Shown here in pieces: positions 2,943 through 64,000 of a stretch of DNA of 64,000 bases. Under the pieces are notes generated by a model that was not told where the DNA came from, did not search any database, and saw only the letters and a program-made list of their open reading frames with translations. Positions within the stretch are counted from its first letter, which is position 1. The number at the start of each line of letters is the position of its first letter. The stretch lies in assembly GCA_963669175.1 (NCBI GenBank), contig OY769902.1:841348-905347 (forward strand), read 5' to 3'. Origin of the DNA: a bacterium (GTDB lineage: Bacteria; Electryoneota; Electryoneia; Electryoneales; Electryoneaceae). The position numbers and the translations under genes are program-made.

Positions 2943-3038
2943 GTTTCCCCCATTTCGAATGCCCTAATATACGGTTCTGAAATGGGACGGGAAACCGGAA
3001 TCAGGAGGGGGTAGTTGACCATTTGAAGGTGAACAATA

Positions 3039-4608
3039 ACTACTCTTGAAAATAAACCGTCATGATAGTATCCGACGAACGATTCATAGGTGACTAGGAA
3101 TAAGCCTATGGAAAAAGGGGACAGTTTCCTTTTCCAGAAATACTTCAGAACTATTCTGTATAAGCGCGAGGAAAAGGATCCCGTCCCCTTTTCCCGGCAA
3201 TCTCTATTATGACGGAATAAAATCGAGTTCCTATGTTAAACGACAGGCGCATCAAGTCGTGTTGGAACTGCTATCTTAGCAGTATTCCATTTTTCCAACA
3301 CAAGGAGAAGCGCCATGTCGAAGAACCAAGTTATTGCAGCGGACCGTTCATTGTCTATAGGTCTGGATGTTGATTCGCAGACTTCTTTCGCCGTTGTGCT
3401 CGACACCCAGACTGGTGAAGTGCTCTTTGAGAATCGGATCAAGCATGACTCAGCCGCTTGGGAACGCTTCTTTGCCCGTTTTCCCAACTGCCGCATGTGG
3501 GCGTGTTATGAAGCGGGCCTCACCGGCTTTGGCCTCTGTCGTTACCTGATCGGCCAAGGTGTTGACTGCCAGATCGCGCCGCCCAGCCAAGTTCCCAAAG
3601 GGGCGCAAGCGAAGCAGCAGAAGACCGATCATCTGGATGCCCTTACCTTGGCCCACATGTTCTGGACACCACCTCGTACCTGGGTACATGTCCCCACAGA
3701 ACAGGAAGAGGCGGATCGTCAGTTGTCTCGCACCCGTGACCAGGTGATGAATGATCGCGTTCGGGTCAAAAACCGAATCAAGAGTCTGCTATTGTTTCAC
3801 GGTTTACAGTCACCGTTTCCGCCGCAACGCTATTGGACAAAGGAATACCGGCGCTGGTTGCGAACGTGTGATTGTCTGGCTGCGACACGGATAGCCATTG
3901 ATGTTGCTCTCGATGAGCTGGAGGCCATTGAACAGCAACTCAAGGTGATCACCAAAGCGATCAAGGCGATGAATGCGTCCGCAACGTATCGGGACCGTAC
4001 CCAGCGCCTGTGCCAGGTGAAAGGCGTGGGCGAGCTGACCGTGAACGCCTTCGTGACCGAGATGTATCGTCCCGAACGCTTCGCATCCGGTAAGCAAGTC
4101 GGCGCACATCTTGGCTTGACGCCGTGTGAATGGTCAAGCGCCAACACACGCCATATGGGACACATTACCCACTGGGGACCGTCCCATCTACGAAAACTAT
4201 TGGTCGAAGCTGCGTGGCGTTGGGTGCAAAAAGATCCGTATGCAAAGAAGAAATACGATGCGATCCATGCCGGGAAAACACGGAAAGTGGCGATCGTCGC
4301 CATGGCACGAAAACTAGCCGTGATACTGTGGGCCATGCTGGTCAAAGAACAAGACTACAATCCTGCCTGCGTATAACCCCAGCACTGCTGGCAGGTAGGT
4401 AAAGCATAGATTGTGATTGAATCGTCCGATGCCATTGGGAACACGCGACCCTGGTAGTTATTCTGTTGCTTGACAACGATTCGAGTTTAGGGCGCCGCTG
4501 TTCCGTGCGAACAAAAAACTTGTGCCACGAGCACGAATAGCAGAACGGCACATGGGACGATACAAAGGCTCTTTACACCCTTGACTGTTTACATAGCAGA
4601 ACAGCTAT
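3039..4608 (+). mobile_element. IS110-family insertion sequence, copy 1 (about 1570 bp, no obvious terminal IRs)
   Basis: Essentially identical to 45012-46687 apart from a 110-bp duplication present in copy 2. Single transposase ORF. 5' leader contains palindromic GGAAAAGG/CCTTTTCC motifs. Confidence 0.8.
3315..4376 (+). CDS. IS110 family transposase (DEDD-type)
   Basis: 353 aa. N-terminal IGLDVDSQTSFAVVLD (IS110 N-domain) and C-terminal GVGELTVNAFVTEM...GLTPCEWSSANTRHMGHITHWGPSHLRKLL (IS116/IS110/IS902 C-domain). Confidence 0.9.
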   Translation: MSKNQVIAADRSLSIGLDVDSQTSFAVVLDTQTGEVLFENRIKHDSAAWERFFARFPNCRMWACYEAGLTGFGLCRYLIGQGVDCQIAPPSQVPKGAQAKQQKTDHLDALTLAHMFWTPPRTWVHVPTEQEEADRQLSRTRDQVMNDRVRVKNRIKSLLLFHGLQSPFPPQRYWTKEYRRWLRTCDCLAATRIAIDVALDELEAIEQQLKVITKAIKAMNASATYRDRTQRLCQVKGVGELTVNAFVTEMYRPERFASGKQVGAHLGLTPCEWSSANTRHMGHITHWGPSHLRKLLVEAAWRWVQKDPYAKKKYDAIHAGKTRKVAIVAMARKLAVILWAMLVKEQDYNPACV

Positions 4609-4822
4609 ATTTCGCATGATAGATCGTCATCAGGCATCACATTGCGACCTGACGACAGCGAGAGTGCTGATACCGGTGGCAGGTCACAACGCGACAATAA
4701 CAGGACGAGAGGTGGTTTCAGTATCATGTGCATTCAGAAATACATTGCGAAAGCCGAAAACGGAATGTCGCGTCAAGACCTGCCACAACTTTGCCCGGAT
4801 GTACAAATTCTTGTGAGGAATC
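4609..4822 (+). repeat. MITE-A fragment (right 2/3 of a ~340 bp element, truncated by IS110 copy 1)
   Basis: Aligns with 20850-21103 and 62690-62912. Ends in right TIR ...CAAATTCTTGTGAGG. Contains hairpin GTCATCAGGC...GACCTGACGAC. Confidence 0.55.
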
Positions 4823-5764: not shown

Positions 5765-6246
5765 TATATTAGCTGAGCTGTTCAGGTTGTAGTAAGGAAG
5801 GGATAGAAATAAACGTAACAGAGGTTTGTCCTGTTATAGTGTTGCTCAAACAATATATCCCATCATGTCATTCCCGGCCTTATGCGCCGAGGCGTATTGA
5901 ACGGGGATCTCGTTGTTTTTCTATTTCATGGGATAATGTTTATACAACCATAGTCGTTCCCGAAAGTCTTTTCCGTTTCAGGGTAACGGTAGTTACTTTC
6001 AGGCACAAAACATTTGTTCTGTATAGAGTTTGACTCTCTCTTATTGCTCTCTTTCGAAAACATATTTTGTTGTTTTAGCAGGCTTTAGCCTGCTCTTCTT
6101 AGCACCCGGCTTCAGCCGGGGTGAGAAGATGCAAACAACATTCTGAGCACGCTTTAGCATGCTTGCCTGGTATAAATCCTGATTCCGGAAAGCACCCTGA
6201 AGGGCGCTCACCACTTCTTTAGCACAACGAACACCCCGGCTGAAGC

Positions 6247-7118
6247 CCTGTCTCATACCCACATCTTCTGAAAGCTGTATCAGTAAAAGAGTTGTGGACA
6301 TAGCATTTTTAGAATCCCGGCGGGATTCCCTATTTTAGCATAGTGTACAGGCCGTCTGTTTGGCCTGTACACTATGTCAGGTATTCTAACGAATAATCAA
6401 CCCTGGAAGGGTTGCATAATACGCGATTCATATTAGTACGTTCAATAAATACAGGAAATAACGCATTTTATATTCTATACAAACCAATTGGGTGTAAATT
6501 ATACGTTATGCAACCCTTCCAGGGTTGAGATAAGGTTTGATCTTTTTCGTAGGGTAGACGCTAACCCGAATATTTCATGAACGGAACATGGATATTCATC
6601 TTAACACAGTTCATATCAACACAATACAACTGATTCATACAGCATTTTTCAGGGGACAGTTTGCTCCGGTATCCCTTTGCGTGTCTATTCCCTGTTTCGC
6701 TGGCAAAATAGGCTGAGAATCGGCAACCGCCCCGGCAGGGGCAACCTGTATTAGCCCCGGGCAGCCGCCGTCAGTTTGGCGGCTACCCGGGGAGATAATG
6801 CGCATCATATATTTACTCCGGAAGGAGTAACCTGATAATTATCAAAAGTATACAGTGGAAATATTCAGGCAACCCGCTGCCGGGGTTGGCAAGTAGCGTA
6901 CATCCTATTCCCACCGTGAGCGCCAAACAGACGGCGCTGGACGGTGGGCTAATACAGAGAACCACTGCCGTGGTTCTTGTACTGGCCATTCCATCAAATA
7001 CCAAATTTGAAATTGCATTGGTGAAATATTCGGGCTAAACAGACAGCGTCAACCCTACGCTAAAATATACCACCCCCTCTGGGGTGGCAGAAACACGAAG
7101 ATGTGAGCAAGAGACAGG
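6247..7118. repeat. MITE-E (TIR CCTGTCTCWTACCCACATCTTC) inserted into a MITE-C hairpin; itself carries MITE-D
   Basis: Ends 6247-6268 and 7097-7118 are inverted repeats. An uninterrupted 403-bp copy is at 63004-63406. Flanked by duplicated GCTGAAGCC from the target hairpin. Confidence 0.5.
6565..7028. repeat. MITE-D (464 bp, perfect 13-bp TIR CCCGAATATTTCA, 4-bp TSD CTAA)
   Basis: TIR 6565-6577 versus 7016-7028. CTAA sits on both sides (6561-6564, 7029-7032). Inserted in the loop of hairpin CGTAGGGTAGACGCTAAACAGACAGCGTCAACCCTACG, which is intact at 63305-63342. Confidence 0.65.
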
Positions 7119-7224
7119 GCTGAAGCCGGGTGCTAAAAAGAGCCTGCTAAAGCAGGCTGATAACTATTCGAATCAGCAAAAACTTTCGGGAACGACTATA
7201 CAATAGTGCAATACGGAAACGGGG

Positions 7225-7518: not shown

Positions 7519-9297
7519 CTATACCCCCAGGGTCATCTGTTCGTTTGCCGCTGTTTTATTCGGCGCTTCGGTTTGGGATGGCAATGAATGGCCGTTGACC
7601 AGGTTGTGGACGATGGCATCCATCAATTTTTCGCTGTGGGATCGGGACTGGGTTAGCTTGGCTTCCAGATCGTCACATAACGCCATCAGTTGGTCGACTT
7701 TTTCAACGATGCGTTTTTGTTCTTCAAGTGGTGGAATTGGCACGGGACAAGCCCGAAGCTGTGTCTTATTTATAGATGCAAGATTGGTTGTTTGTTTGGA
7801 TGATCCTGCGAAATAGTCCCTGGCGGGGACAGAATTCAGGTATAATTCAAGCCACTTTTCGTTTTGTTCGTCAAGCAGTTTTCTTGCCTTGAAGACATGG
7901 TTTTGATGGATACATAGCGGAATTTCCAGATTCCAAATACAGGTTCGTCCGACTTTATCCCAATCACCACCTTCAGTTATCAGCAGGTCTTTGCTTTGCA
8001 AGCTGAATTTTTCTATTTCATCTTCAGCAATTTCAATTTCTTTGATCATTGACAAATCCAGATGACCGCGTTGTACATTCGCAACGCGAAGGTATGGCAA
8101 CGATACAAGCTTTCGACCTTCCAGTTTACGACCCTTTGTGACACCGCTGCTGATAATGGTCAAATCTTCAAAACGTACCCACTCCCAGTTACTTGGTAGC
8201 AGGAAGGGATTTAACGCCAATTTCGATTTTGGGATCGGCGGAAGCCTCTTTAATTCCCCAGTAGACAGTAGCTGTTCTTTCTTGTTATGGACTGCATTTA
8301 CCAAAGCTTCTGCGCTATCGTCGCTAGGGGCTTGTGGAACAAGTTTGCCCTGAACAGCAAGCTGAAGGATGGCTTGGCGAAGTTCCTGGATGGTTGCGGG
8401 GGTGTCGTACAGGATATCGAAATGATCGGCGATCCGATGCCAGGCGTGTTGGAAGGTCGACGGGTCGCTGGCGGTCGTCAGGGAATGTAGGGACGCTTTA
8501 TTCAGGTTAATCCGTACCGATACCATTTTCTGCTGCTGCTGTTCCAATTCATCACACAACGCCATTAGTTGATCGACTTTTGCAACGATGCGTTTTTGTT
8601 CCGGTAATGGCGCTACGGGGATCAGTGTCATCCTTGCGTCTGTTGTATTCAGTCTTGGCAAATTAATTCCGTAAGTTTTGTTATTTACATAGGTTATAAA
8701 ATATGGGCTTTTCAAAATCCATCGAAGATAATATGGATCCATTCCTTCTAACACTACAATGGGTACAATTTCAGTTGTTGAGTATCCTGCTTCATCCGCA
8801 ACTATTACTTTATCCAAATATGGACGAAGTTTACCATACAATACGTCATTCCTTCGAAAGGATGTTTTGGTGCTTTTGGGCCTTCGTTGTTCAACGGTTA
8901 TTCTTTGTAATAACCTTGAACTAGATTTTTCTATATCTTCTAATTCAAGCATCCAGCGGTCAGATACTAACTGATTTGGTTCATGATTTTGACGACCTTT
9001 ATATATTGTCGTTTCACCTAAACGATTCCATTTCCAGCTCAATGGAATATCAAATGGAATTTCATTACTTTTTATCTTCGGTAATGTCTTTTCGGTTCTA
9101 ATACCTTCAACCTTATAGTGCTTTTGTTTCAATTCATTCATCTTATCAAACCAGACAACAACCGATTCATCATCAGGATCTTGTGAGACAAGTTTACCTT
9201 GAACCGCAAGCTGAAGGATCAATTCACGTAGCATTTGAATCCCGTTCGGGCCTTCAGCAAGGTGTCCGAAATTATCCATGAACGTCTGCGGGGTCAT
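7519..9297 (-). CDS. hsdS: type I restriction-modification system specificity subunit HsdS (two target-recognition domains)
   Basis: 592 aa. Two AT-rich variable TRDs separated by conserved repeats (7621-7760 approx equals 8521-8640). 4-bp overlap with hsdM stop. Confidence 0.85.
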   Translation of the reverse strand: MTPQTFMDNFGHLAEGPNGIQMLRELILQLAVQGKLVSQDPDDESVVVWFDKMNELKQKHYKVEGIRTEKTLPKIKSNEIPFDIPLSWKWNRLGETTIYKGRQNHEPNQLVSDRWMLELEDIEKSSSRLLQRITVEQRRPKSTKTSFRRNDVLYGKLRPYLDKVIVADEAGYSTTEIVPIVVLEGMDPYYLRWILKSPYFITYVNNKTYGINLPRLNTTDARMTLIPVAPLPEQKRIVAKVDQLMALCDELEQQQQKMVSVRINLNKASLHSLTTASDPSTFQHAWHRIADHFDILYDTPATIQELRQAILQLAVQGKLVPQAPSDDSAEALVNAVHNKKEQLLSTGELKRLPPIPKSKLALNPFLLPSNWEWVRFEDLTIISSGVTKGRKLEGRKLVSLPYLRVANVQRGHLDLSMIKEIEIAEDEIEKFSLQSKDLLITEGGDWDKVGRTCIWNLEIPLCIHQNHVFKARKLLDEQNEKWLELYLNSVPARDYFAGSSKQTTNLASINKTQLRACPVPIPPLEEQKRIVEKVDQLMALCDDLEAKLTQSRSHSEKLMDAIVHNLVNGHSLPSQTEAPNKTAANEQMTLGV

Positions 9298-13344: not shown

Positions 13345-13392
13345 TGGTAGCGCGTACGGGAATCGAACCCGTGTTTCCGGCGTGAGAGGCCA
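13345..13392 (-). other. 48-bp duplicate of tRNA-Glu 3' portion (anticodon stem to CCA): attachment-site repeat
   Basis: Identical to 20586-20633. Not a complete tRNA. Confidence 0.85.
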
Positions 13393-13579
13393 CAAACTAC
13401 CCTTTTCACTGAACTTACTTCGCTGTTTTGGGCGGTCCCTTAACACTAGTGATAGAAAGCTGTTCAACGGGTTGAACCACTCCTTGACTTCCCTTCGCTT
13501 ACCTAGTTATATAGTCTGACAGGTGGGGACAATGGTGGGGAAGCTGTTCTATCACCCCGATACGAAACAGGAGGTTGTC

Positions 13580-14743
13580 ATGGCGGCCAAGTACAAACGG
13601 CAAAAGACACAATATCCCGGCGTGTTCTATCACGTCATGCCCAGGACCGGGCACAAAGAGGACGAGAAGGTTTACTACATTCGATTTAAGCGTGACGGAA
13701 AGCAATATGAGGAACGTGTTGGCGGTCAACATAGCAACGATATGACACCACAACGCGCAAACAATATTCGCGCCGAACGAATTGAGGGAAAACGTGAATC
13801 CAGGTTAGAGCGGCAAAAACGTGAAACTGAAGCGCGTGAAGCTGAACATAACGCCTGGACAGTGGCGAAGATTTGGGAATACTACAAGGAGATTCGGGGC
13901 GAGTGGAACAAATCACTTGCTACAGATGGCTACCGGTATGAATCCTATATCGCTTCAAGCTTTGGCAAGGAACAACCCAAGGCGATCAAGCCAGTTGACG
14001 TTGACCGGTGGCGTATGGATCTAGAAAAGCGCAATCTGTCGCCTCAGACGGTTCGCCATATCATGGCACTATTGAAACGAATCCTGAACTTCGCGAAGAA
14101 CCGTGTTCTGTGCGAAACCCCAGACTTCGCCTTCGATATGCCTCAGGTTGATAACATCAAAGACGATGCGCTCGATGCCGAACAGATTGATACGCTTGCA
14201 AAGGTACTGGATGAGGAAGAAAAACGTGGAGGCCCGTATAAACGTTTTGCTGGTATGATGCGGCTGGCACTGTTTACGGGAATGCGGCGAGGCGAGATAA
14301 CAAACTTGAAATGGGAAGATATTGACTGGCGGAACAACCTAATCGCAATTCGGAACCCCAAGGGTGGGAAAGATCAATTCATTCCATTGACCAATCTCTC
14401 GATCCCCGTACTCAAGGCACAGAAGCTCACCAAGAGTTCATACGTGTTCCCCGGTAAAGATGGACAGCGCCTGAAAAATACCTCAAAGCTATCCCGCGCA
14501 ATATTTGATAAAGCCAAGTTACCGAAAGACTATCGACCCTTTCACAGTCTTCGCCACACTTTCGCAACCGTGCTCGCCAGTTCTGGCAAGGTCGATATGT
14601 ACTCTCTCCAGCGTTTGCTAACGCATAAATCACCTATCATGACTCAACGATATGCAAAGCTACACGATGAAGCTCTCAGGCGAAGTGCAGACGTGGCAAC
14701 CAGTATCTTTGGTGGACATATCACCGGCGAAAAAGAAATTTGA
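13580..14743 (+). CDS. int: tyrosine-type site-specific integrase
   Basis: Catalytic box HSLRHTFAT...LLTHKSPIMTQRYAKL (R..H..R..Y). Start chosen at ATG 13580, 6 nt after AGGAGG. The ORF extends upstream to 13523. Confidence 0.85.
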   Translation: MAAKYKRQKTQYPGVFYHVMPRTGHKEDEKVYYIRFKRDGKQYEERVGGQHSNDMTPQRANNIRAERIEGKRESRLERQKRETEAREAEHNAWTVAKIWEYYKEIRGEWNKSLATDGYRYESYIASSFGKEQPKAIKPVDVDRWRMDLEKRNLSPQTVRHIMALLKRILNFAKNRVLCETPDFAFDMPQVDNIKDDALDAEQIDTLAKVLDEEEKRGGPYKRFAGMMRLALFTGMRRGEITNLKWEDIDWRNNLIAIRNPKGGKDQFIPLTNLSIPVLKAQKLTKSSYVFPGKDGQRLKNTSKLSRAIFDKAKLPKDYRPFHSLRHTFATVLASSGKVDMYSLQRLLTHKSPIMTQRYAKLHDEALRRSADVATSIFGGHITGEKEI

Positions 14744-14972
14744 CTCTCCAAATATTAGGATACTCTGAAGTTTCTTCGTGTTGTTAAGTTATTACTATCA
14801 TGCCTTTTACAACCAATTCCTACCTGGTTTATTATCTTTTTTTCCTCCCAAGGTTTGTAAAGAAAGAAATTGTAGTATTTCTTTGGAAGCACATCAAGGA
14901 GCAGGTACAAGTCAGAGCCTCTCGGTTTACCAATCAATTGCCGGGAGCATCACCTACATAAGGAGAGGAAAG

Positions 14973-15215
14973 ATGCTTAGTTCAGAGTCAACGACAACCC
15001 AACCGAAAGGGACCAAACCGATGTACCTCACTGAGCACCAAGTAGCTGAAATGACGGGGTTTGCCCTCCAGACGCTACGCAACTGGCGATTCCGGGGCGA
15101 AGGGCCGCGATACCTCAAGGTCGCAAAGCGGTCAATTCGATACCTGGAATCAGATGTGAACGAGTTTATGCAACGCAACCTGATTGAAACCGAGGAGGTC
15201 GCGAATGCTGCGTAA
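14973..15215 (+). CDS. AlpA/excisionase-family helix-turn-helix protein
   Basis: MYLTEHQVAEMTGFALQTLRNWRFRGEGPRYLKV matches the AlpA/Xis HTH. AGGAGAGG RBS before ATG 14973. The 5' extension to 14778 is probably not translated. Confidence 0.65.
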   Translation: MLSSESTTTQPKGTKPMYLTEHQVAEMTGFALQTLRNWRFRGEGPRYLKVAKRSIRYLESDVNEFMQRNLIETEEVANAA

Positions 15216-15381
15216 GGAAGAAAACAAAGAAGCCCCCCGTGGAACCGAGGGGCCAACACTTGTAAATGAACCGGGCTGCAACCCGGTTATACTCCAAACT
15301 CAAAGGAAACATAAGATCATGAAAACCAGAAATCAAGAGCGAATGAGTCAACTGTTCGCCAAGGAGGCGCTCAATGTCTGA
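15205..15381 (+). CDS. small basic hypothetical protein (58 aa)
   Basis: Stop overlaps the primase start in ATGTCTGA (translational coupling). Confidence 0.3.
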   Translation: MLRKEENKEAPRGTEGPTLVNEPGCNPVILQTQRKHKIMKTRNQERMSQLFAKEALNV

Positions 15382-17713
15382 TACGCCTCTTAACATCGTT
15401 CTTCAAACACTCCACCAACACGGCTCACCCGCACAGCAGAAAACCGGATACTGGCTGGCTCGGTGTCCAGCCCATGACGACAGCAACCCCTCGCTATCTA
15501 TTAGCGAAGGGGACCAGGGCCAAGTCCTGCTCAAGTGTCATGCGGGATGCGGTACGGAAGACATTGTATCGGCCCTTGGGCTTTCCATGGGGGATCTCTT
15601 CCCCAAGGACACCCCACCACCTGCGCGGAAGAAGCAACAGAATCCCAAACAACAGCCCAAGATCGTTAAAGAGTACAACTACCAAGACGAGAATGGTGAG
15701 CTGCTGTACCAGGTGGTGCGATACAAACCGAAGGGTTTCAAGCAGCGTAGACCAAACCCAGAGCGGCACGGGAAATGGATATGGAGTTTAGACGATGTTG
15801 TTCGTGTTCCCTATCGTCTACCTGAGCTTTTGGCTTCGGATTTGGCGATTATTGTCGAGGGCGAAAAAGACGCAGACCGGCTCGCCCATGCCGGTTTCAC
15901 CGGAGCAACCACCTTCCCAATGGGAGCGGGTAATTGGCGGCCCGAATACACGCAGCACTTCACGGGTAAAGACGTTGTGATATTACCCGATGCAGACACA
16001 TCGGGCAAAGAACACGGCTCGAAGGTCGCCGGGAATCTGCACGGTGTTGCGAAGCGTGTTCGCTTGCTGGAGCCTTTCTCCAACGCAAAGGACGTAAGCG
16101 ACTGGTTAGACTCAGGCGGAACGGTGGAGCAGCTACGGAAGCTAATGGACATTTGTCCAACATACTCTCCCGAGAACCCACCAGAATGGGCCGTAGGGAC
16201 GAAAAAGGAGCCCTCTTCCACACCTACTTTCAACATACCAAAACTCGAAGAGGCGCTCAAAACCAATGAAGTTGGTAACGCCGAACTATTAGTGAAGCGT
16301 CACAAGCACGAGCTGCGATTCGAACCCAACCTGAACAGGTGGTACAGGTGGACAGGACGGCAGTGGAAGCAAACTCCTAAGATTGCTATAAAGGGATTAG
16401 CCCGTGAAGTAATCATGCAGGAGTTGCCAACAGAAGTAAAACAGGCTGGCAACGATTTAGATCGGTTTCAGACCTGTTTGAGACACTTCCAAGTCTCAGC
16501 ACGTGATAAGCAATTCGATGCTATGGTTCGGATTGCAGAATCGTACTCAGAATTGTGGGTTGACGCTAGCGACTTCGATGCGGAGCCTTGGTTGTTCAAC
16601 GTACAAAATGGAGTCCTTGATCTTCGCACCGGCGAACTACTTCCGCACTCGTCGGACAGACTGATCATGAAGATTGCTCCTGTCACCTGGCAAGGGCTGG
16701 AGGTCACGTCTGCTCTCTGGGAGAGTTTCCTCGAGCGGTTGTGCGGGAGTGAAAACGGCTCAAGTGAGGATAGCGTGGAGCGTCTAAAAGACTATCTACA
16801 GAGCGTTGCCGGTTATCTGTTGTTTGGAGGCAACCCGGCGGAGAAGTTCTTTCTTATACACGGCCCCAAGCGGTCCGGCAAGTCTACGTTTCTGGCCGCT
16901 CTATTCAGCGCAATGGGCGATGCTAAGCTAGACGGGTACGCCAACGCCTCGAATGCGGAGACTTTCCTGCAATCGGGAGACCGAGGCGACGGTAGCAAAC
17001 CCAGGTCCGATCTCATGGCTTTCATGGGAGCAAGGTTTGTCTTTGCCAGCGAGTTTCCAGAATACCGGCGATTCGATTCGGCTAAGATGAAAATGTGGAG
17101 CGGCGGTGATCCAATCACAGCAAGGGCTCCATACAACAAGTGCGAGACCACATTCAAACCGATGTTCACGATTGCGATTGCTACGAACGATCTACCGACA
17201 CTTGAACGGACAGACGCGGCGCTATGGGATAGGGCGATACCTCTACCTTTCCCATATTCCATACCAGAGGGGCAGCGAGACCCCAACGTGAAGGAGGCGC
17301 TCTCAGACCCTGAACAGCACGGCGCGGCTATCCTGGCTTGGGCTGTTAGAGGGTTACTGGTATATCGTGACAACGGAAACCAGCTTCCATCTTTGCCGCC
17401 CGAAGTATTGCGAAGCAAAGAAGACTTGTTCGCCGAGCAAGACCCGCTCCGTGAATTCATTGAGGAGTGTTGTGAGCTTCAGCACGATGCTTGGGTAAGC
17501 CGTACCCTGTTGCGGAGAGCTTACGTGGACTATGCTTCTGAGGTTGGTGATCACCCTATTGGCAATCGAAAGTTTTCTGACCTGATCCTTGCACGTGATG
17601 ACATCACGCGCACTCAGAAACGTGACGGTGATAAACGTGTTTGGGGGTATGAGGGGATTCGACTTGCTCGAGACGTGACACAAAACATTGTTAAACTGAA
17701 AGAGGTTGCCTAA
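15374..17713 (+). CDS. P4-family DNA primase/helicase (zinc-binding + Toprim + D5_N + SF3 P-loop)
   Basis: 779 aa. N-terminal CPAHDDSNPSLSI...CHAGCG zinc motif; Toprim-like EGEKDADRLAHAGF; Walker A GPKRSGKST. Confidence 0.85.
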   Translation: MSDTPLNIVLQTLHQHGSPAQQKTGYWLARCPAHDDSNPSLSISEGDQGQVLLKCHAGCGTEDIVSALGLSMGDLFPKDTPPPARKKQQNPKQQPKIVKEYNYQDENGELLYQVVRYKPKGFKQRRPNPERHGKWIWSLDDVVRVPYRLPELLASDLAIIVEGEKDADRLAHAGFTGATTFPMGAGNWRPEYTQHFTGKDVVILPDADTSGKEHGSKVAGNLHGVAKRVRLLEPFSNAKDVSDWLDSGGTVEQLRKLMDICPTYSPENPPEWAVGTKKEPSSTPTFNIPKLEEALKTNEVGNAELLVKRHKHELRFEPNLNRWYRWTGRQWKQTPKIAIKGLAREVIMQELPTEVKQAGNDLDRFQTCLRHFQVSARDKQFDAMVRIAESYSELWVDASDFDAEPWLFNVQNGVLDLRTGELLPHSSDRLIMKIAPVTWQGLEVTSALWESFLERLCGSENGSSEDSVERLKDYLQSVAGYLLFGGNPAEKFFLIHGPKRSGKSTFLAALFSAMGDAKLDGYANASNAETFLQSGDRGDGSKPRSDLMAFMGARFVFASEFPEYRRFDSAKMKMWSGGDPITARAPYNKCETTFKPMFTIAIATNDLPTLERTDAALWDRAIPLPFPYSIPEGQRDPNVKEALSDPEQHGAAILAWAVRGLLVYRDNGNQLPSLPPEVLRSKEDLFAEQDPLREFIEECCELQHDAWVSRTLLRRAYVDYASEVGDHPIGNRKFSDLILARDDITRTQKRDGDKRVWGYEGIRLARDVTQNIVKLKEVA

Positions 17714-17718
17714 GAGAT

Positions 17719-17905
17719 TTTGTCACCGTTGTCACCACAATATAGCCCAAATTGTAACAACCTCTCACGAATACGGATATGAAAAGAGTTTTGAAAAAAC
17801 ACGGTTATTACGGTGACAGCGGTGACACTTCACGTAAACACTCACGTACAGTATTTGAGCGGCGAGCCAGAGATGAAGCCTCTAAGGTATTTTTTCACAT
17901 TCACG
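17719..17905. other. candidate replication origin: TTGTCACC iterons in direct and inverted orientation plus three CACGTAAA repeats
   Basis: TTGTCACCGTTGTCACC at 17719-17735 and its inverse GGTGACAGCGGTGACAC at 17809-17825. CACGTAAA repeated 3 times at 17827-17905. Sits immediately downstream of the primase gene. Confidence 0.35.
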
Positions 17906-18045
17906 TAAATCGCTGCATTGCGCCGTCAAACCTACGATTGAGCGATGCGAGCCATGTGATTCTAATGTGTCACATTTAGGTGCTCATCTCTATACTACCG
18001 GGTTCGGCGGAAAAAACAGGATTGATTGCGTAGAAAGGAAACGAA

Positions 18046-18384
18046 ATGCTCGATAAGGAAAACCTCGTGATAGCGAAGTTCGAAGAGTTATACGAGTTGG
18101 TATATGGTACTGCGGTCGATTGGCTCGACCGTACCGAGGATGAGAAGCTCGGACACATTATGAAAATTATGACGGTCAACAAAGTGTGTCCAAAGTGTGG
18201 AGGCGAGCTTCGAAAAGTAAGCGGACAGTACGGTCTATTCTACGGGTGCTCGTGTTATCCAGATTGCGACTATCGGGAGTCCATTAAGGCAGCAGGCGAC
18301 AAAGAGGCAAAGCGCCAAGTCCAGTTGGCCGTAGCAGAAACGTTTGACAGGATGGCCCACTATGCGAGATCGGGTTTATCCTAG
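18046..18384 (+). CDS. hypothetical protein with C4 zinc-finger (topoisomerase-type zf: CPKCGGEL...FYGCSCYPDC)
   Basis: 112 aa. Motif matches zf-C4_Topoisom. Confidence 0.6.
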   Translation: MLDKENLVIAKFEELYELVYGTAVDWLDRTEDEKLGHIMKIMTVNKVCPKCGGELRKVSGQYGLFYGCSCYPDCDYRESIKAAGDKEAKRQVQLAVAETFDRMAHYARSGLS

Positions 18385-18454
18385 CGATATTTGAGGTACA
18401 TCGTCAGGTTCGCCCGGAACTTTCCGAAGGTCTGGAAAATTCAACCTCAACATT

Positions 18455-18500
18455 CCCCGCTCGTTACCATAGCATTAGTAAACGAGTGGGGATTTCTTTT
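18455..18500 (+). terminator. rho-independent terminator
   Basis: CCCCGCTCGTT...AACGAGTGGGG stem followed by ATTTCTTTT. Confidence 0.5.
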
Positions 18501-18556
18501 GACTTCTGGTGTGATAGCACATATCTTGCATATTAGCCTATGAACACCGATTAGCC

Positions 18557-19237
18557 TTGGGGGACACGATGAACAAGACCTTCCTTGCTTTTCCTCTATT
18601 CCTGATCCTTGCTCTGTCTTTCGGTTGTGACAGTGATGATGATAACGGGGTTGGTAACGATGGCGGTAATGATGAGCCAGAAGCTCCAGTTGCCGAAGAG
18701 GTGGCGGACCTGTTTCCGCTTGGGGACGGGTTGTCTTGGGTCTACTTGTATCCTGGTGATAATGACACCACTATCGAGGTAAGAAGCTACGATACAGGTG
18801 AGCGGTACGACGGTGAGATACTGTATCGAATGGGTTCGTTTCATGAGAGTTCTGGGATGTGGGGCGGTAATACCTACTCTGTGACGAACGATAGTGTGCG
18901 TATGTATGTTTGGGACGAACAGCGTGGCGACTATATAACGATGCCTGACTTCTATAGCTTCCCCTGGGCACAACAAGGTGCTGTTATAGACAACGATGGA
19001 AGCAACTTCTGTTGGCGTGTATGGGCCTCTGACAGTACGATGACCGTACCCGCCGGTACGTTTGAGCATTGCTACGTTGTACGCTATGGAAGATATGACA
19101 ACACTGATCCTCGGGGGCGTTACTACAAGGCATACGCGCCGGAGATTGGGTTGATTAAATGGTGGTTTGACGATGCGACACGGTACAATCGAGAATTGAT
19201 TTCGTTTGGTGAAGTTTCCGAGGGGTTGGAAAATTGA
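18557..19237 (+). CDS. hypothetical secreted protein / candidate lipoprotein
   Basis: Signal peptide MNKTFLAFPLFLILALSFGC, then an acidic low-complexity linker. Confidence 0.55.
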   Translation: MGDTMNKTFLAFPLFLILALSFGCDSDDDNGVGNDGGNDEPEAPVAEEVADLFPLGDGLSWVYLYPGDNDTTIEVRSYDTGERYDGEILYRMGSFHESSGMWGGNTYSVTNDSVRMYVWDEQRGDYITMPDFYSFPWAQQGAVIDNDGSNFCWRVWASDSTMTVPAGTFEHCYVVRYGRYDNTDPRGRYYKAYAPEIGLIKWWFDDATRYNRELISFGEVSEGLEN

Positions 19238-19346
19238 TACGGACATTCAGCTACAGATGTACACTATGTGGGCGACAGAGGATTTGGTGCTTCATAAATT
19301 TATACTACAATTGCAGTGGGACGTGAGATTTTAAAGGAGTCTGACG

Positions 19347-20252: not shown

Positions 20253-20585
20253 TATTGCATATCGCGGGCACCGAATCATAATACCCAAGCACAGCCAATG
20301 CCCCCCCCACTTGCCTTGCACCCCCGTCACCCTGTCATTCGAGGGTGAAGTTCGCACCAATCTACAGCCTTAGCTACATAGTTGCGGCATGGCTCCCGCT
20401 ATCGCACCTCATAGAATCCATCCTGAGGCGCGTAGACCGCCTGTGGCGCGGTTTTCTCCACCTTGGCAAGGGTCAAGGCCATTGAGAAAGAAAACGCCTT
20501 TCTGGTGGGGAATATGGTGGGGAAGCAAAAAAGCGGCTCCAGGAGAACCGCTTTCAAGAAAGATGTAAACAGCTATTTTACAACT

Positions 20586-20660
20586 TGGTAGCGCGTACGG
20601 GAATCGAACCCGTGTTTCCGGCGTGAGAGGCCAGCGTCCTGACCGCTGAACGAACGCGCC
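20586..20660 (-). tRNA. tRNA-Glu (anticodon CUC), 75 nt with encoded CCA
   Basis: Manually folded. Acceptor GGCGCGU/ACGCGCU, D-arm GUUC/GGAC, anticodon stem CUGGC/GCCGG with loop CUCUCAC, T-arm ACGGG-UUCGAUU-CCCGU. Confidence 0.85.
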
Positions 20661-20761: not shown

Positions 20762-21103
20762 TGAAAAGTTAGGCTGCTCACAAGAATTTGTACATACAAT
20801 CGACGAGCACGTTTCGTCAGGTCTTGACACGATACCTTTTTCTTGTTTTTTACCGCAATTGCAGACACCTGTCCGACTTTACGCCTGCAATTTTACATGA
20901 TAGTTCGTCGTCAGGCATCGTGTTATAACCTGACGACTGCGAGAATGCTGATATCGGTGGCAGGTCACAACGCGACAAAAACAGGGCGAGAGGCGGTTTC
21001 TGTATCATCGTTATTCAGGAAAACATTGCTAAAGCCGAAGACAGAATGTCGCGTCAAGACCTGCCACAACATTGCCCGGATGCACAAATTCTTGTGAGGA
21101 ACC
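20762..21103. repeat. MITE-A complete copy (342 bp, TIR CTCACAAGAATTTGT, 8-bp TSD AAAAGTTA)
   Basis: Imperfect ~50-bp TIRs. TSD at 20754-20761 and 21104-21111. Inserted inside an array of GAAAGTT octamers. Confidence 0.65.
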
Positions 21104-21400
21104 AAAAGTTAGAAAGTTCAAAAGTTACCTATCCTTATCGTCCTACTACCTGAAAAATTGTTACCTTCCCGACTTGCTGCCAGATATTGTTATTCTGCGA
21201 AACTTCTCTTCCATAACATTCCCCTGTTTTGGAATCAGAGAACATCACAGGCAAATCGGGCCATGCCTCACTGGAGTTGGAAAGTTACAAAGCTTGAAAG
21301 TTCTAAAGTTATTTGAATGATTGCATAGAATACGGTCATAAATCAGGTTTCAGACATGGCATAATGTCAGTAACCATTCACTCTTTTCATCATTCTTTCA

Positions 21401-37900: not shown

Positions 37901-38145
37901 AGCGCTTCTGTATTCAAAGTAACAAATTGATAACCATAGCTTCGGAAGGCGAAAATAGGGACGGAATCGCAAAAGTCAGCCCATATTTCTTCTTTCGTGA
38001 AATCCCACGTTACTGTTAAAACATCTTTTGTCAAGCAGAAGTAGAACTTCTGAATACTTTCACTGTTTCAACTCCGCCGGCAAGCATGCGCGAGAGCCAA
38101 AAACCAATGTGTCAGAGATCAACTATATAGTTGGAAAAAGAGATG

Positions 38146-38275
38146 GCAAAAAGGGACAGTTTCCTTTTCTATGAATACTTCGGGAATATTCTACATAAGC
38201 GCGAGGAAAAGGATCCCGTCCCCTTTTCCCGGCAATCTCTATTATGTCGTAATAAAATCGAGAACAGCCTTACAA
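38146..38275 (+). repeat. solo remnant of IS110-element 5' leader (about 130 bp)
   Basis: About 85% identical to 3111-3240 and 45180-45310 (AAAGGGACAGTTTCCTTTTC...GCGCGAGGAAAAGGATCCCGTCCCCTTTTCCCGGCAATCTCTATTATG). No transposase follows. Confidence 0.55.
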
Positions 38276-44814: not shown

Positions 44815-45011
44815 TTCACGAAAGAAATGTTTCATGTTTGTGAAATCAGATTGAGATATTCCACGGTTTGATCTCAAACTCACACATTCTGATGCGACAT
44901 TGTTTTCAAGATAGATTACATCCTCAAGACTGACTATACCTTCAAGACGGAGGTTATTTTAAAGACTGATTATACATTTTTTGGGAGTGACTCAAGGTTT
45001 TTCTTATATAG

Positions 45012-46687
45012 CTACTCTTGAAAATAAAGCGTCATGATAGTATCCGACGAACGATTCATAGGTGATAGGAAAGAAGCATATGGAAAAAGGGGACAGTTTC
45101 CTTTCCCTGAAGCAAAGCCTTCCCGCTGTGAGCATGGACCGGGAAAGGTGGCTGTACCCTTTTTCTTGAGAGCAGGCAGGAATTACACGGAAAAGGGGAC
45201 AGTTTCCTTTTCCATGAATGTCTCAAGCGTATTCTGTATGAGCGCGAGGAAAAGGATCCCGTCCCCTTTTCCCGGCAATCTCTATTATGACGGAATAAAA
45301 CCGAGTTCCTATGTTAAACGACAGGCGCATCAAGTCGTGTTGGAACTGCTATCTTAGCAGTATTCCATTTTTCCAACACAAGGAGAAGCGCCATGTCGAA
45401 GAACCAAGTTATTGCAGCGGACCGTTCATTGTCTATAGGTCTGGATGTTGATTCGCAGACTTCTTTCGCCGTTGTGCTCGACACCCAGACTGGTGAAGTG
45501 CTCTTTGAGAATCGGATCAAGCATGACTCAGCCGCTTGGGAACGCTTCTTTGCCCGTTTTCCCAACTGCCGCATGTGGGCGTGTTATGAAGCGGGCCTCA
45601 CCGGCTTTGGCCTCTGTCGTTACCTGATCGGCCAAGGTGTTGACTGCCAGATCGCGCCGCCCAGCCAAGTTCCCAAAGGGGCGCAAGCGAAGCAGCAGAA
45701 GACCGATCATCTGGATGCCCTTACCTTGGCCCACATGTTCTGGACACCACCTCGTACCTGGGTACATGTCCCCACAGAACAGGAAGAGGCGGATCGTCAG
45801 TTGTCTCGCACCCGTGACCAGGTGATGAATGATCGCGTTCGGGTCAAAAACCGAATCAAGAGTCTGCTATTGTTTCACGGTTTACAGTCACCGTTTCCGC
45901 CGCAACGCTATTGGACAAAGGAATACCGGCGCTGGTTGCGAACGTGTGATTGTCTGGCTGCGACACGGATAGCCATTGATGTTGCTCTCGATGAGCTGGA
46001 GGCCATTGAACAGCAACTCAAGGTGATCACCAAAGCGATCAAGGCGATGAATGCGTCCGCAACGTATCGGGACCGTACCCAGCGCCTGTGCCAGGTGAAA
46101 GGCGTGGGCGAGCTGACCGTGAACGCCTTCGTGACCGAGATGTATCGTCCCGAACGCTTCGCATCCGGTAAGCAAGTCGGCGCACATCTTGGCTTGACGC
46201 CGTGTGAATGGTCAAGCGCCAACACACGCCATATGGGACACATTACCCACTGGGGACCGTCCCATCTACGAAAACTATTGGTCGAAGCTGCGTGGCGTTG
46301 GGTGCAAAAAGATCCGTATGCAAAGAAGAAATACGATGCGATCCATGCCGGGAAAACACGGAAAGTGGCGATCGTCGCCATGGCACGAAAACTAGCCGTG
46401 ATACTGTGGGCCATGCTGGTCAAAGAACAAGACTACAATCCTGCCTGCGTATAACCCCAGCACTGCTGGCAGGTAGGTAAAGCATAGATTGTGATTGAAT
46501 CGTCCGATGCCATTGGGAACACGCGACCCTGGTAGTTATTCTGTTGCTTGACAACGATTCGAGTTTAGGGCGCCGCTGTTCCGTGCGAACAAAAAACTTG
46601 TGCCACGAGCACGAATAGCAGAACGGCACATGGGACGATACAAAGGCTCTTTACACCCTTGACTGTTTACATAGCAGAACAGCTATA
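45012..46687 (+). mobile_element. IS110-family insertion sequence, copy 2 (1676 bp, with a 110-bp internal tandem duplication in the leader)
   Basis: Identical to copy 1 over ORF and ends. Extra leader segment 45100-45210 repeats the AAAGGGGACAGTTTCCTTTCC unit. Confidence 0.8.
45393..46454 (+). CDS. IS110 family transposase (identical to 3315-4376)
   Basis: 100% identical 353-aa product. Confidence 0.9.
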   Translation: MSKNQVIAADRSLSIGLDVDSQTSFAVVLDTQTGEVLFENRIKHDSAAWERFFARFPNCRMWACYEAGLTGFGLCRYLIGQGVDCQIAPPSQVPKGAQAKQQKTDHLDALTLAHMFWTPPRTWVHVPTEQEEADRQLSRTRDQVMNDRVRVKNRIKSLLLFHGLQSPFPPQRYWTKEYRRWLRTCDCLAATRIAIDVALDELEAIEQQLKVITKAIKAMNASATYRDRTQRLCQVKGVGELTVNAFVTEMYRPERFASGKQVGAHLGLTPCEWSSANTRHMGHITHWGPSHLRKLLVEAAWRWVQKDPYAKKKYDAIHAGKTRKVAIVAMARKLAVILWAMLVKEQDYNPACV

Positions 46688-46740
46688 CCAGATATGGTTA
46701 AGTTTTTGTACTCCGCAGGAGTACGATAAGTGAGCCCAGG

Positions 46741-46880
46741 GTTGGCAAGTAGCGTACATCCTATTCCCACCGTGAGCGCCAAACAGACGGCGCTGGACGG
46801 TGGGCTAATTCAGGGAACCACTGCCGTGGTTCTTGCACTGGCCGTTCCATCAAGTATCACATTGAAATTCCAATGGTGAA
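46741..46880. repeat. MITE-D right-end fragment abutting IS110 copy 2
   Basis: Matches 6884-7028 including hairpin CCCACCGTGAGCGCCAAACAGACGGCGCTGGACGGTGGG and terminal GTGAAATATCCGGG. Confidence 0.5.
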
Positions 46881-47014
46881 ATATCCGGGCTAATGGCAGA
46901 TTAAACAAAAAAACGGGACCGACCCTGATGAGTCAGTCCCGATTTCAAAACATCATGCTATCCGGACATCAGAATCGATGATATCCTTCAATCCTTGTTT
47001 TCTGTGAAGAGCTT

Positions 47015-53064: not shown

Positions 53065-53154
53065 GCCCTTTAAGTTGGAAAGTTATAGATTAGAAAATTA
53101 TCAAGTTAATGCGTTATTGTGGTTCCGGAAAGTTTTACTGATTAGAAGGCAATT

Positions 53155-53357
53155 AGCCTGCTTCAGCAGGCTCCTCTTAGCACCCGGCTTTAGCCGGGTG
53201 GCTGGGGATAACAGAAGCTATGAGCGCGCTTTAGCGTGCTTCAGTGTCATAGAATCTATACAAATCCAGAAAGCACCCTGAAGGGCGCTCGAGTCCTTGT
53301 TGTCCTTGTTCCCCCGGCTAAAGCCGGGGGCTAAGAGGAGCAGGCTAAAGCCTGCTA
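53155..53357. repeat. MITE-C compact copy (about 200 bp) between riboswitch and ribD
   Basis: Same stacked hairpins as 6074-6240/7119-7158 (AGCCTGCTTCAGCAGGCT, AGCACCCGGCTTTAGCCGGGTG, GCGCGCTTTAGCGTGC, AGCACCCTGAAGGGCGCT ... CCCCGGCTAAAGCCGGGGG, AGCAGGCTAAAGCCTGCT). Confidence 0.6.
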
Positions 53358-53447
53358 ACAAAAATGAATATAAATTTTCGAAAGAGTGCAATCCGGGAAA
53401 ATCAGACGCTATACAAGACAATGTAAGTTCTTCATCAGAATGTTTTT

Positions 53448-53490: not shown

Positions 53491-53548
53491 AGATACAGGC
53501 AGTAAATGCAACAGATACAGGCAACGACAGCAAACAACATACAGGCTT

Positions 53549-62357: not shown

Positions 62358-62578
62358 TATGTTCATTCAAAGCAGAAAGTATCCCGCCACTTCGAGGTGA
62401 ATTCTCACCACAACATGAACTGGATTCATGTATACACATTGTTCGCTAGCCCGAATATTTCATGAACAAAACATGGATAATCATCTTAACACATTTCATA
62501 TCAGCACAATACAACTGATTCATACAGCATTTTGCAGGGTACAGTTTGCTCCGGTATCCCTTTGCGTGTTTATTCCTT

Positions 62579-62912
62579 GGGCTGCTCACAAGAATTTGTG
62601 CATATTATCGACGAGCACGTTTCGTCAGGTCTTGACGTGATGCCTTTTTCTTGTTTTTCTCCGTAATTTCAGACATCTGTCCGACTTCACACCTGCTATT
62701 TCGCATGATAGATCGTCGTCAGGCATCACGTTGTGACCTGACGACAGCGAGAGTGCTGATACAGGTGGCAGGTCACAACGCGACAATAACAGTACGAGAG
62801 GTGGTTTCAGTATCATCGTGTATTCGGGAAAACATCGCGAAAGCCGAAAACGGAAAGTCGCGTCAAGACCTGCCACAACTTTGCCCGAATGCACAAATTC
62901 TTGTGAGGAACC
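62579..62912. repeat. MITE-A complete copy nested in MITE-D (7-bp TSD ATTCCTT)
   Basis: TIRs CTCACAAGAATTTGTGCAT / GCACAAATTCTTGTGAGG. Flanking ATTCCTT at 62572-62578 and 62913-62919. Uninterrupted target sequence visible at 6690-6700. Confidence 0.65.
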
Positions 62913-63003
62913 ATTCCTTGTTTCGCTGACAAACTGAAGCTGAGTTTCGGAAACCGCCCCGGAAGGGGCAATCTGTATTAGCCCAGGGCGGCCGCCGTTA
63001 GTT

Positions 63004-63406
63004 CTGTCTCTTACCCACATCTTCTGAAAGCTGTATCAGTAAAAGAGTTGTGGACATAGCATTTTTAGAATCCCGGCGGGATTCCCTATTTTAGCATAGT
63101 GTACAGGCCGTCTGTTTGGCCTGTACACTATGTCAGGTATTCTAACGAATAATCAACCCTGGAAGGGTTGCATAATACGCGATTCATATTAGTACGTTCA
63201 ATAAATACAGGAAATAACGCATTTTATATTCTATACAAACCAATTGGGTGTAAATTATACGTTATGCAACCCTTCCAGGGTTGAGATAAGGTTTGATCTT
63301 TTTCGTAGGGTAGACGCTAAACAGACAGCGTCAACCCTACGCTAAAATATACCACCCCCTCTGGGGTGGCAGAAACACGAAGATGTGAGCAAGAGACAGG
63401 CCGTTA
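63004..63406. repeat. MITE-E uninterrupted copy (403 bp) nested in MITE-D
   Basis: TIR CTGTCTCTTACCCACATCTTC / GAAGATGTGAGCAAGAGACAG. Contains intact hairpins with AAACAGAC / GTCTGTTT loops. Confidence 0.55.
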
Positions 63407-64000
63407 GTTGGCGGCTACCTTGGGAGATGAATCCCACTACTATTTACTCCGGCAGGAGTAACCTGAATATTATTATTGGTATACAGTTTGGATTCTTAGG
63501 CAACCACTGTCGGGGTTGGCAGGTAGTCTACACCCTTTTCCCACCGTGAGCGCCAAACAGACTGGAGCTGGACGGTGGGTTTATTCAGGGAACCACTGCC
63601 GTGGTTCTTATCCCGCCCGTTCCATCAAGTATCACATGTGAAAGTGCCAGTCGTGAAATATCCGGGCCAGTAACACCATGTTTCGTACATAGACGAAACA
63701 GCGGGACCTTCCTGATAGCATAGTGATGTAGTAAAGAACCCACCCATCACCCAGCCTGCGCACCAGATTCACAGGGTAAGCACCAGCTTCGCAGTTTTTC
63801 TTGGTACATATAGCTTTCAGGTTTCTCTTTCACAACACTGGAGCCCTGATTTACCTCTCTTGTTCACCTTCATGACAATGAAAATCTATTCGGGCAACAG
63901 GTGTCTGCTTAGCCTTATTGCCTACAAGCTAAAAAGAATTCTGAAACGATCGTAATACAGTCGAATTCCTTATCAGAAGAGGAATTGCATTTTCAATTGG

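Follow-up and report, generated by a model that had tools for sequence, protein, structure and literature searches.

Introduction

The Correia and RUP elements, Nezha and the small elements of Microcystis and Nostoc are examples of MITEs (miniature inverted-repeat transposable elements) in bacteria. Here we describe a group of small repeats, designated families A to E, which are in part inserted into one another in a window of 64,000 nucleotides from a member of the Electryoneaceae (GenBank assembly GCA_963669175.1, contig OY769902.1, positions 841,348 to 905,347 of the forward strand), a poorly studied lineage with type IX secretion genes. The repeats resemble the bacterial MITEs in being ~0.3-0.5 kb long, non-coding, self-folding and multicopy, in having terminal inverted repeats and target duplications of a length specific to the family, and in inserting into each other. 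They differ in that five or more interlocking families share a stretch of 64 kb and in that an autonomous partner was not found in the window.

The second group of systems with which the locus can be compared are the mobile elements that enter repeated hairpins. The insertion sequences (IS) IS1397 and ISKpn1 are found in the loops of bacterial interspersed mosaic elements (BIMEs), and ISPpu9, ISPpu10 and ISPa11 in repetitive extragenic palindromes (REPs) (PMC1525189, PMC12288879); IS110-family elements within repeats have also been described (PMC12288879). In the window, mobile elements likewise lie in the loop or at the tip of GC-rich repeated hairpins, and an IS1111-type element occupies a fixed position in B. 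The difference is that it is non-autonomous MITEs that invade here, and that they are hosted by other MITEs and not by classical REPs. When mobile elements land in repeated hairpins, the repeats themselves turn into sites where more repeats can nest.

MITE-like sequence accounts for ~4.1 kb (6.4%) of the window; the G+C content here is ~49%. A first-pass annotation of the same DNA had considered this density unusual for a bacterial chromosome. This was an overstatement, since nested IS and MITEs ("Russian dolls") are explicitly treated in a pipeline for prokaryotic transposable elements (PMC3852290), and the repeats are best described as dense but not unprecedented.

Nested insertions and their order

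Repeats in the window were mapped with a repeat finder and by all-against-all self-BLAST, and their junctions were read base by base. Every repeat named in the first-pass annotation was recovered, and the nested cluster that it reported is real (Table 1). In nest 1 (6010-7200) a copy of C (C1) contains a copy of E (E1), which in turn contains a copy of D (D1), while in nest 2 (62450-63666) a second copy of D (D2) contains both a copy of A (A2) and a copy of E (E2). These two orders of nesting, as originally proposed, follow exactly from the junctions and from excision arithmetic. When D1 is excised in silico from E1 together with one copy of its duplication, 396 bp remain, and 395 of the 396 match E2. 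D2 without A2 and E2 is 470 bp, which is the length of D1 itself, at 85% identity, and its full length of 1217 bp is the sum of 470, (333+8) and (396+10). C1 without E1 is 311 bp as against 310 bp for the uninterrupted C2, with 74.5% identity between them. Filled and empty sites had also been said to be present together, and a pair of the two can be found in the window for each of the four nesting events; the empty site of E1 in C2, for example, reads GGCTAAAGCC. The flanking duplications measured 10, 10, 8, 8 and 4 bp, where a 10-bp match has a chance probability of P ~1e-6. The insertion boundaries, the duplications, the empty sites, the order of events and the lack of coding capacity of the elements are all demonstrated.

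The nests also give relative ages. C1 is older than E1 and E1 older than D1, and D2 is older than both A2 and E2. Since D1 lies inside E1 and E2 lies inside D2, D was mobile after an insertion of E, and E after an insertion of D. Furthermore, with a single difference in 396 bases and with flanks that are not alike, E1 and E2 are independent and recent insertions. At the first locus, C was present first, E1 then entered the tip of a C hairpin, and D1 followed into the loop of a hairpin of E1. At the second locus an old D2 received A2 and, recently, E2.

Repeat-rich regions collapse easily during assembly and the E copies are nearly identical, both of which could point to an assembly artefact or to a segmental duplication. 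The copies, however, differ in their flanks and in their duplications, the D copies are just 85% identical, and the source is a single 5.45-Mb contig. The exactness of the excision lengths argues against collapse and segmental duplication alike, and we find such an origin scarcely credible.

Structure and proposed mobilisation of A, D and E

The elements measure 332-333 bp (A), ~202 bp (B), ~311 bp (C), 470 bp (D) and 396 bp (E); all are under ~600 bp and none has a transposase gene. The sizes given earlier for A (342), D (464) and E (403) were off by 6-10 bp. Terminal inverted repeats are 24 nt with 2 mismatches in A (GGYTSCTCACAAGAATTTGTRCAT), 13 nt without mismatch in D1 and 21 nt with 3 mismatches in E. 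The duplications are 8 bp for A (twice), 4 bp (CTAA) for D and 10 bp for E (twice in the window and twice in the related elements L004 and L005, described below). For A, the duplication had been placed at 7-8 bp, in agreement with the 8 bp found, but the inverted repeat had been given as 15 nt and starts 5 nt further out. For D, the perfect 13-bp inverted repeat and the 4-bp CTAA duplication were described correctly and are seen at D1. End motifs were found 4 times for E, 5 times for A and 6 times for D, as against 0.00, 0.16 and 0.27 expected from shuffled sequence. Two more read-through open reading frames (ORFs) derived from A are present on the source contig, and in both the similarity ends at ..AQILVRN, corresponding to ..CAAATTCTTGTGAGGAAC at the right end of A. 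With these two, A is represented at least five times, and the position of its right boundary recurs. Four families had been called MITE-like; A, D and E, which have inverted repeats, duplications and no recognisable protein, behave as MITEs, while C, for which no duplication was found and whose ends are undefined from two copies, may be REP/BIME-like rather than a DDE-type MITE. A fifth family, B, which hosts an IS1111-like element, and a hairpin module common to D and E had been missed.

The eight longest frames that can be read in A, C, D and E were all without a Pfam match at E <= 0.01. As single strands, the repeats have fold z-scores of -13.3 (E), -8.0 (C2), -7.7 (D1) and -4.3 (A). This very strong predicted folding, together with pair-preserving changes in the hairpin common to D and E and the location of C2 in the ribD leader downstream of a flavin mononucleotide (FMN) riboswitch, could suggest that the repeats are duplicated structured non-coding RNA genes or regulatory modules and no transposons. 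We consider this very unlikely. Palindromic MITEs normally fold strongly, insertion is evident from the target duplications and the exact empty sites, and the repeats were without a match in Rfam at the gathering threshold, where the FMN riboswitch and a tRNA-Glu were the sole matches in the window.

We propose that A, D and E, and probably B as well, are MITEs, that is, deletion derivatives of DDE-type IS whose transposition depends in trans on enzymes encoded at other places of the 5.45-Mb chromosome, and we hold this explanation with good confidence. Mobilisation in trans, the families of the transposases and the cause of the hairpin preference (below) are the parts of it that we infer. Since there are three duplication lengths, three types of transposase would serve A, D and E. 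Each family would be cut and integrated by its own type of enzyme, leaving 8 bp with A, 4 bp at CTAR with D, 10 bp with E and possibly TA with B. The window's sole transposase is an IS110/IS1111-type DEDD recombinase. Since this recombinase does not fit the ends of A, D and E, the mobilising enzymes are presumably encoded elsewhere, and, given also the near identity of the two E copies, it is reasonable to infer that active transposases act elsewhere in the genome. The IS110-type element was rejected as the mobiliser of A, D and E, being site-specific, without long terminal repeats and itself a guest of B.

For D, three IS families with duplications of 4-6 bp were considered and rejected, the end signature, the duplication length or both being in disagreement. 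The end of D (CCCGAATATTTCA) has G and not Y at position 4 of the IS701 signature ---YACT-Y--YR, and it reads CCCG where the ISH3 signature has CRGT (PMC2266710, Table 1). The signature of IS1634, C-----YT, is a half fit, with C at position 1 and T at position 7 but A and not T at position 8, and the 4-bp duplication of D is below the 5-6 bp of IS1634 (PMC2266710, Table 1). These comparisons leave IS701, ISH3 and IS1634 aside. Possible leads for D are the IS5 group, with 4 bp at YTAR, and IS1380, with CC ends and 4-5 bp; for A, with its GG ends and 8 bp, ISL3, IS256 and IS6 are all possible.

A plasmid collection searched with positions 5940-7210 gave zero matches, as did IMG/VR when scanned with the E-end and A-end patterns. 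Apart from the ends of E, the families were without a match in the collections searched, namely plasmids, GTDB (one genome per species) and JGI metagenomes by the ends of E, and IMG/VR by the ends of E and A.

The ends of E and its relatives in other genomes

Both ends of E agree with the IS50-subgroup signature CW------Y---CA-A--W- at 7 of its 7 conserved positions (PMC2266710, Table 1), the chance of which is ~1/2000 per end. In addition, 17 of 19 positions of the left end are identical to the mosaic end of Tn5, CTGTCTCTTATACACATCT, a sequence string attested in PMC4248319. Adapter contamination was rejected as the source of these ends, as they occur in inverted pairs with duplications, are two bases off the adapter and vary between genomes. 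Duplications are 8-9 bp in the IS50 subgroup and "about 10 bp" in the IS4 family (PMC2266710). Since the 10-bp duplication of E is outside the range of the subgroup and within the norm of the family, we refer to E as IS4-family-like with IS50-like ends and not as a proven member of the subgroup; judged from its ends, its transposase would be an IS4-family, IS50-like enzyme. E therefore resembles the IS4/IS50 (Tn5) elements in the fit of its ends to the signature and in a duplication of about one helical turn. It differs from them in having no transposase, in the duplication of 10 bp versus 8-9 bp, and in its host, which probably belongs to the FCB group or Calditrichota, the known members of the IS50 group being mostly proteobacterial.

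The E-end pattern was scanned in GTDB with one genome per species and returned six stretches of DNA. E-type ends are present in four of them, three being contigs of Calditrichaeota metagenome-assembled genomes (MAGs) and the fourth L001; of the other two, L002 is an uncertain match at a contig end and L006 a probable chance match inside a gene. The same pattern found one locus in the JGI metagenomes, where the flank of the match reads ATTCAAGAAA. MITEs of 365 bp with E-type ends were found in the Calditrichaeota MAG JAANWZ01 (L004, 3077-3441; L005, 2746-3111), others being at 1741 of L001 and 8307-8327 of L007. The Calditrichaeota elements have 10-bp duplications, GACTTCAGTC and GGCYTCAGCC, and lie at the tips of GNCTTCAGNC hairpins, and their interiors are unrelated to E except for a mirrored pair of ATAGC + GC hairpins. 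These E-like MITEs and the type IX secretion genes of the source lineage both point to the FCB group. Further one-sided flanks of E-type elements outside the source read GTCTGAAGAC and GACTTCAGAC. Altogether, five of eight E-type sites fit GNCTKMAGNC, a motif with a chance of ~1/16,000 per site. A preference for symmetric targets is a trait of the IS4 family, as in IS10 and IS231 (PMC2266710).

Target choice and hairpin loops

E1 lies at the tip of a C hairpin. E2 has entered a D hairpin within its loop of 8 nt, and D1 an E hairpin whose loop, also of 8 nt, is interrupted at its 5' edge; A2 lies outside any hairpin. The claim that insertions land in hairpin loops thus holds for E1, E2 and D1, three of the four events, but not for A into D. 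For D it has to be qualified, since two of the six YTAR sites in E are at loops, and the loop preference of D is therefore confounded with its CTAR preference. CTAA is about 4-fold more frequent in the repeats than outside them (9.0 versus 2.1 per kb).

A simpler possibility is neutral accumulation, whereby elements insert anywhere and survive in dispensable DNA without any targeting of hairpins or sequences. The insertion of A into D at a non-hairpin site and the location of A1 in ordinary intergenic DNA agree with this, and the readable insertion events in the window are four only. Nevertheless, loops (+/-1 nt) constitute just 8-9% of D and E, which gives P ~0.003 for the three loop-centred events, E-type elements of unrelated genomes also occupy GNCTKMAGNC sites, and all three copies of D abut CTAA or CTAG. 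Neutral accumulation alone is therefore unlikely in our view, and the nesting is not random.

In the explanation that we favour, the MITEs moved by their separate transposases would choose their sites. The E transposase would prefer either GNCTKMAGNC, a quasi-palindrome of 10 bp, or a GC hairpin at its tip, where this is bent or extruded, and such sites would be supplied by C and D. The enzyme of D would prefer CTAA or CTAG, which are enriched within the repeats. Insertion into other junk elements would be harmless, and insertions of this kind would persist for that reason.

Several points weigh against this explanation. No autonomous partner with matching ends was found in the window. The boundaries and copy numbers are based on two to three copies per family and the two protein-level copies of A. 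D2 is flanked by CTAG and CCAG, an imperfect duplication, and A3 and D3 are without their 5' halves, which means that some copies are not simple insertions. The duplication of E, which measures 10 bp in each of the four copies with both flanks known, is one base pair above the 8-9 bp of the IS50 subgroup. The target consensus of E derives from eight sites, four of which are known from one side, and in these data a preference for sequence is inseparable from a preference for structure.

The C repeat and the hairpin module of D and E

C1 and C2 are long imperfect palindromes, with six GC hairpins in mirrored order, TTYA/TRAA tetraloops and 41-nt hairpin-rich inverted arms (I6). A target duplication and clean termini were sought in both copies of C and neither was found; a 30-nt outer inverted repeat (5950-5979 / 7170-7199) exists at C1 only. 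C is MITE-like in shape, and it may equally be a REP/BIME-like array.

D and E each carry two mirrored copies of one hairpin plan, which consists of a (T/A)TTAGC foot, a 15-bp stem and the loop GTCTGTTT (once GTCAGTTT). Between the types, 7-9 of the 15 stem positions are identical and the stems are still paired, with double changes at 8 of the 15 positions, a count that used the four gap-free rows of seven module instances, the D-right copies having alignment gaps. The hairpins of C likewise start with TTAGC, and a shorter form of the module is present in C. TTAGC/GCTAA is ~10-fold enriched in the repeats, C, D and E between them hold all ten TTAGC+hairpin units of the window with none free-standing in 64 kb, and all three loop insertions have hit such units. 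For the module common to D and E, three roles are conceivable: a unit of the REP kind, a site for a host factor or a landing pad for insertions.

More than 100 copies per genome is a hallmark of REPs. If C and the TTAGC-hairpin units of C, D and E were REP-, BIME- or REPIN-like sequences, they would have been spread by a Y1 transposase of the RAYT type or kept as host-factor sites, and the nest would in part consist of MITEs built on, or aimed at, a REP-like substrate. The lack of a duplication and of clean termini in C, its six mirrored GC hairpins, the enrichment of TTAGC/GCTAA and the confinement of the ten units to C, D and E would all agree with this, as would the equal foot, stem length and loop in D and E with stems that are different yet paired. 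REP sequences are, furthermore, known hot spots for IS insertion (PMC1525189). On the other side, no Y1/RAYT gene was present among the window ORFs scanned, the units were never seen alone, and the inverted repeats and duplications found in A, D and E themselves are of the classic sort, such features being absent from REPs and REPINs. We regard the REP-like origin as possible, if doubtful. It is a bolder conjecture, with only a slim chance of being correct, that the module is a functional unit, either a REP-like landing pad or a structure recognised by protein or RNA, which is preferred by several transposases. In that case the MITEs that carry it would seed self-organising nests, and the module would hitch-hike with them.

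C2 has a neighbourhood of its own. The region 52717-53560 comprises an FMN riboswitch (52717-52905, Rfam 94.9 bits), a terminator-like hairpin, C2 and then ribD (53549). Since C2 is between the riboswitch and ribD, it is inside a riboswitch-controlled leader.

Family B and its IS110/IS1111-type guest

The inverted ends of B, TATAGCTACTCT and AGAACAGCTATA, match at ~12 of 14 positions, and a TA duplication is possible only. The 1.5-kb repeat 3113-4609 / 45191-46687, in which B is found, is a composite of more than one element. It includes an IS of 1372 bp, which occupies one and the same position in B1 and B2 and for which an empty site is present. A model in which the IS extended over 3036-4609 and interrupted A and D was rejected. 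It was overturned by the empty site 38254-38270 and by the independent metagenome contig L008, which has a recombinase gene for an 85%-identical protein and covers precisely the equivalent of 3225-4597 of the window. On the source contig, the recombinase has a 100%-identical protein match and three further variants.

Members of the IS1111 group have a DEDD recombinase, a short left end, a long right end and a subterminal inverted repeat of 7-17 bp (PMC11208160). The element inside B has this layout, with non-coding ends of 87 nt (left) and 223 nt (right) and the subterminal inverted repeat CTATGT(T)AAAC. In the right end, AUUCGAG matches the left target arm AATCGAG with one mismatch (7 nt) and GCUGUUC is complementary, without mismatch, to the right target arm GAACAGC (7 nt); AUAGCAG equals the right terminus of the IS, and CAUGGGA pairs with its left terminus through one G:T. 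The 223-nt right end therefore looks like a candidate bridge RNA, as judged by these matches. The element thus resembles the bridge-RNA recombinases of IS110/IS1111 (PMC11208160) in its DEDD and Transposase_20 domains, the layout of its ends, its fixed site and its guide-like matches. It departs from them in the shortness of the guide matches (7 nt each) and in the lack of an Rfam match at the gathering threshold; the fold z-score of the right end is -1.05.

The right ends of B1 and B2 adjoin 3' fragments of A (A3) and D (D3), respectively, at a TA inside each of these, while the left flanks of B1 and B2 (2943-3035 and 44448-45007) are unrelated unique DNA. Since the fragments have lost their 5' parts, both loci appear to have been rearranged, and the simplest guess is that recombination between copies of the IS or of B was the cause. 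B2 also contains an extra segment of ~83 bp (45086-45213) with a 23-bp direct repeat, AAAAGGGGACAGTTTCCTTTYCC, which is missing from B1 and could be a tiny insertion or a slippage duplication.

Table 1. Positions of the repeats, their target duplications and associated elements in the 64-kb window
Feature	Position	Strand	Remarks
B1, left part	3036..3227	+	fifth MITE-like family, ~202 bp; ends ATAACTACTCTTG and GAGAACAGCTATA; 92% identity to B2 over 3036-3139
IS110/IS1111-type IS, copy 1, in B1	3228..4599	+	recombinase gene 3315-4376; Pfam DEDD_Tnp_IS110 (PF01548), Transposase_20 (PF02371)
B1, right end AACAGCTATA	4600..4609	+	contiguous with empty site 38254-38270 once the IS is removed
A3, 3' two-thirds of A	4610..4822	+	5' part missing; abuts B1 right end at GC-TA-TTTCGC of A; 93% identity to A2
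Outer inverted repeat I11, left arm (status uncertain)	5950..5979	.	pairs with 7170-7199; 30 nt, 87% complementary; no C2 counterpart
C1, left part	6010..6247	+	palindromic hairpin-array repeat, outermost host of nest 1; aligns with C2 53424-53187 (reverse strand) after removal of E1
E1 target duplication GGCTGAAGCC, left copy	6238..6247	.	tip of C hairpin; empty C2 equivalent CACCCGGCTAAAGCCGGGTG
E1, 396-bp MITE E split by D1	6248..7117	+	ends CTGTCTCATACCCACATCTTC and GAAGATGTGAGCAAGAGACAG
D1 duplication CTAA, left copy	6561..6564	.	5' edge of E hairpin loop; empty site E2 63317-63320
D1, 470-bp MITE D	6565..7034	+	innermost and youngest layer of nest 1; perfect 13-bp inverted repeat CCCGAATATTTCA
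D1 duplication CTAA, right copy	7035..7038	.	junction reading
E1 target duplication GGCTGAAGCC, right copy	7118..7127	.	junction reading
C1, right part	7128..7200	+	aligns with C2 (reverse strand) as far as 53115
D/E hairpin-module instances	6751-6790, 6909-6949, 63091-63135, 63300-63345		
A1, 332-bp MITE A (repeat I7)	20772..21103	+	outside other elements, adjoins tRNA-Glu; duplication AAAAGTTA at 20764-20771 and 21104-21111; 88% identity to A2
B-like partial copy	38143..38272	+	empty IS target ..AAAATCGAG/AACAGCC.. (slash, junction); 126-nt alignment across junction
B2, left part	45008..45305	+	extra ~83-bp insert flanked by 23-bp direct repeat
IS110/IS1111-type IS, copy 2	45306..46677	+	same position in B2; self-BLAST, junction reading
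B2, right end	46678..46687	+	
D3, 3' part of MITE D	46688..46889	+	abuts B2 right end; right flank CTAA
C2, uninterrupted 310-bp C	53115..53424	-	between FMN riboswitch and ribD; folds as one long hairpin
D2, older MITE D hosting A2 and E2	62450..63666	+	flanks CTAG and CCAG; 85% identity to D1
A2, 333-bp MITE A	62580..62912	+	8-bp duplication ATTCCTTG at 62572-62579 and 62913-62920; empty site D1 6686-6693 (ATTCCCTG)
E2, uninterrupted 396-bp MITE E	63004..63399	+	10-bp duplication GCCGTTAGTT at 62994-63003 and 63400-63409, in D hairpin loop; empty site D1 6767-6776 (GCCGTCAGTT)

Other features of the window

Exact direct repeats of 48 nt (13345-13392 / 20586-20633, the latter in tRNA-Glu) bracket an island of ~7.2 kb, the genes of which encode a tyrosine integrase (13523-14743), a helix-turn-helix protein, a D5_N primase and a Sel1-repeat protein. 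The island at 13345-20660 looks like an element integrated at tRNA-Glu, with A1 just beyond it.

Two genes for four-helix-bundle proteins of the 23S_rRNA_IVP family (55443-55751 and 57735-58100) are wedged among the genes of the riboflavin operon. The second of them is bracketed by 92-nt direct repeats (57627-57718 / 58056-58147, 88%), and runs of TTTTTTCACT-like units are present beside both (55400-55860 and 57620-58150). Between ribBA and the second of these genes there is a single-copy segment of ~276 bp (57137-57412), the inverted ends of which (CTAGTGGACCATTGCACCTG.. and ..CAGGTGCAATGGTCCACAAG) are 35 nt long. This segment, around which a duplication cannot be seen, may represent a sixth element of the MITE kind.

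In hsdS (7519-9297), the specificity gene of a type I restriction system, there are direct repeats at 7663-7722/8542-8601 (88%) and 8326-8370/9175-9219 (84%). Internal repeats of hsdS are the usual duplicated spacer between the target-recognition domains.

Significance

The families described here are new and the system is of a known kind, that of the bacterial MITEs, with no new mechanism demonstrated. What the locus provides is a base-resolved record of at least five interacting families of small mobile elements, with filled and empty sites side by side. Included in it are an IS50-like MITE with a sharp target preference for hairpin tips and an IS1111-type element that is aimed at another MITE. 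The record can be used for the annotation of repeats in this genome, for the dating of transposition bursts and as a data set on the choice of targets by DDE transposases and an RNA-guided recombinase. If it is true that the hairpin module of D and E is a dedicated landing pad, this would be a modest advance in understanding how nests of repeats form in bacteria.

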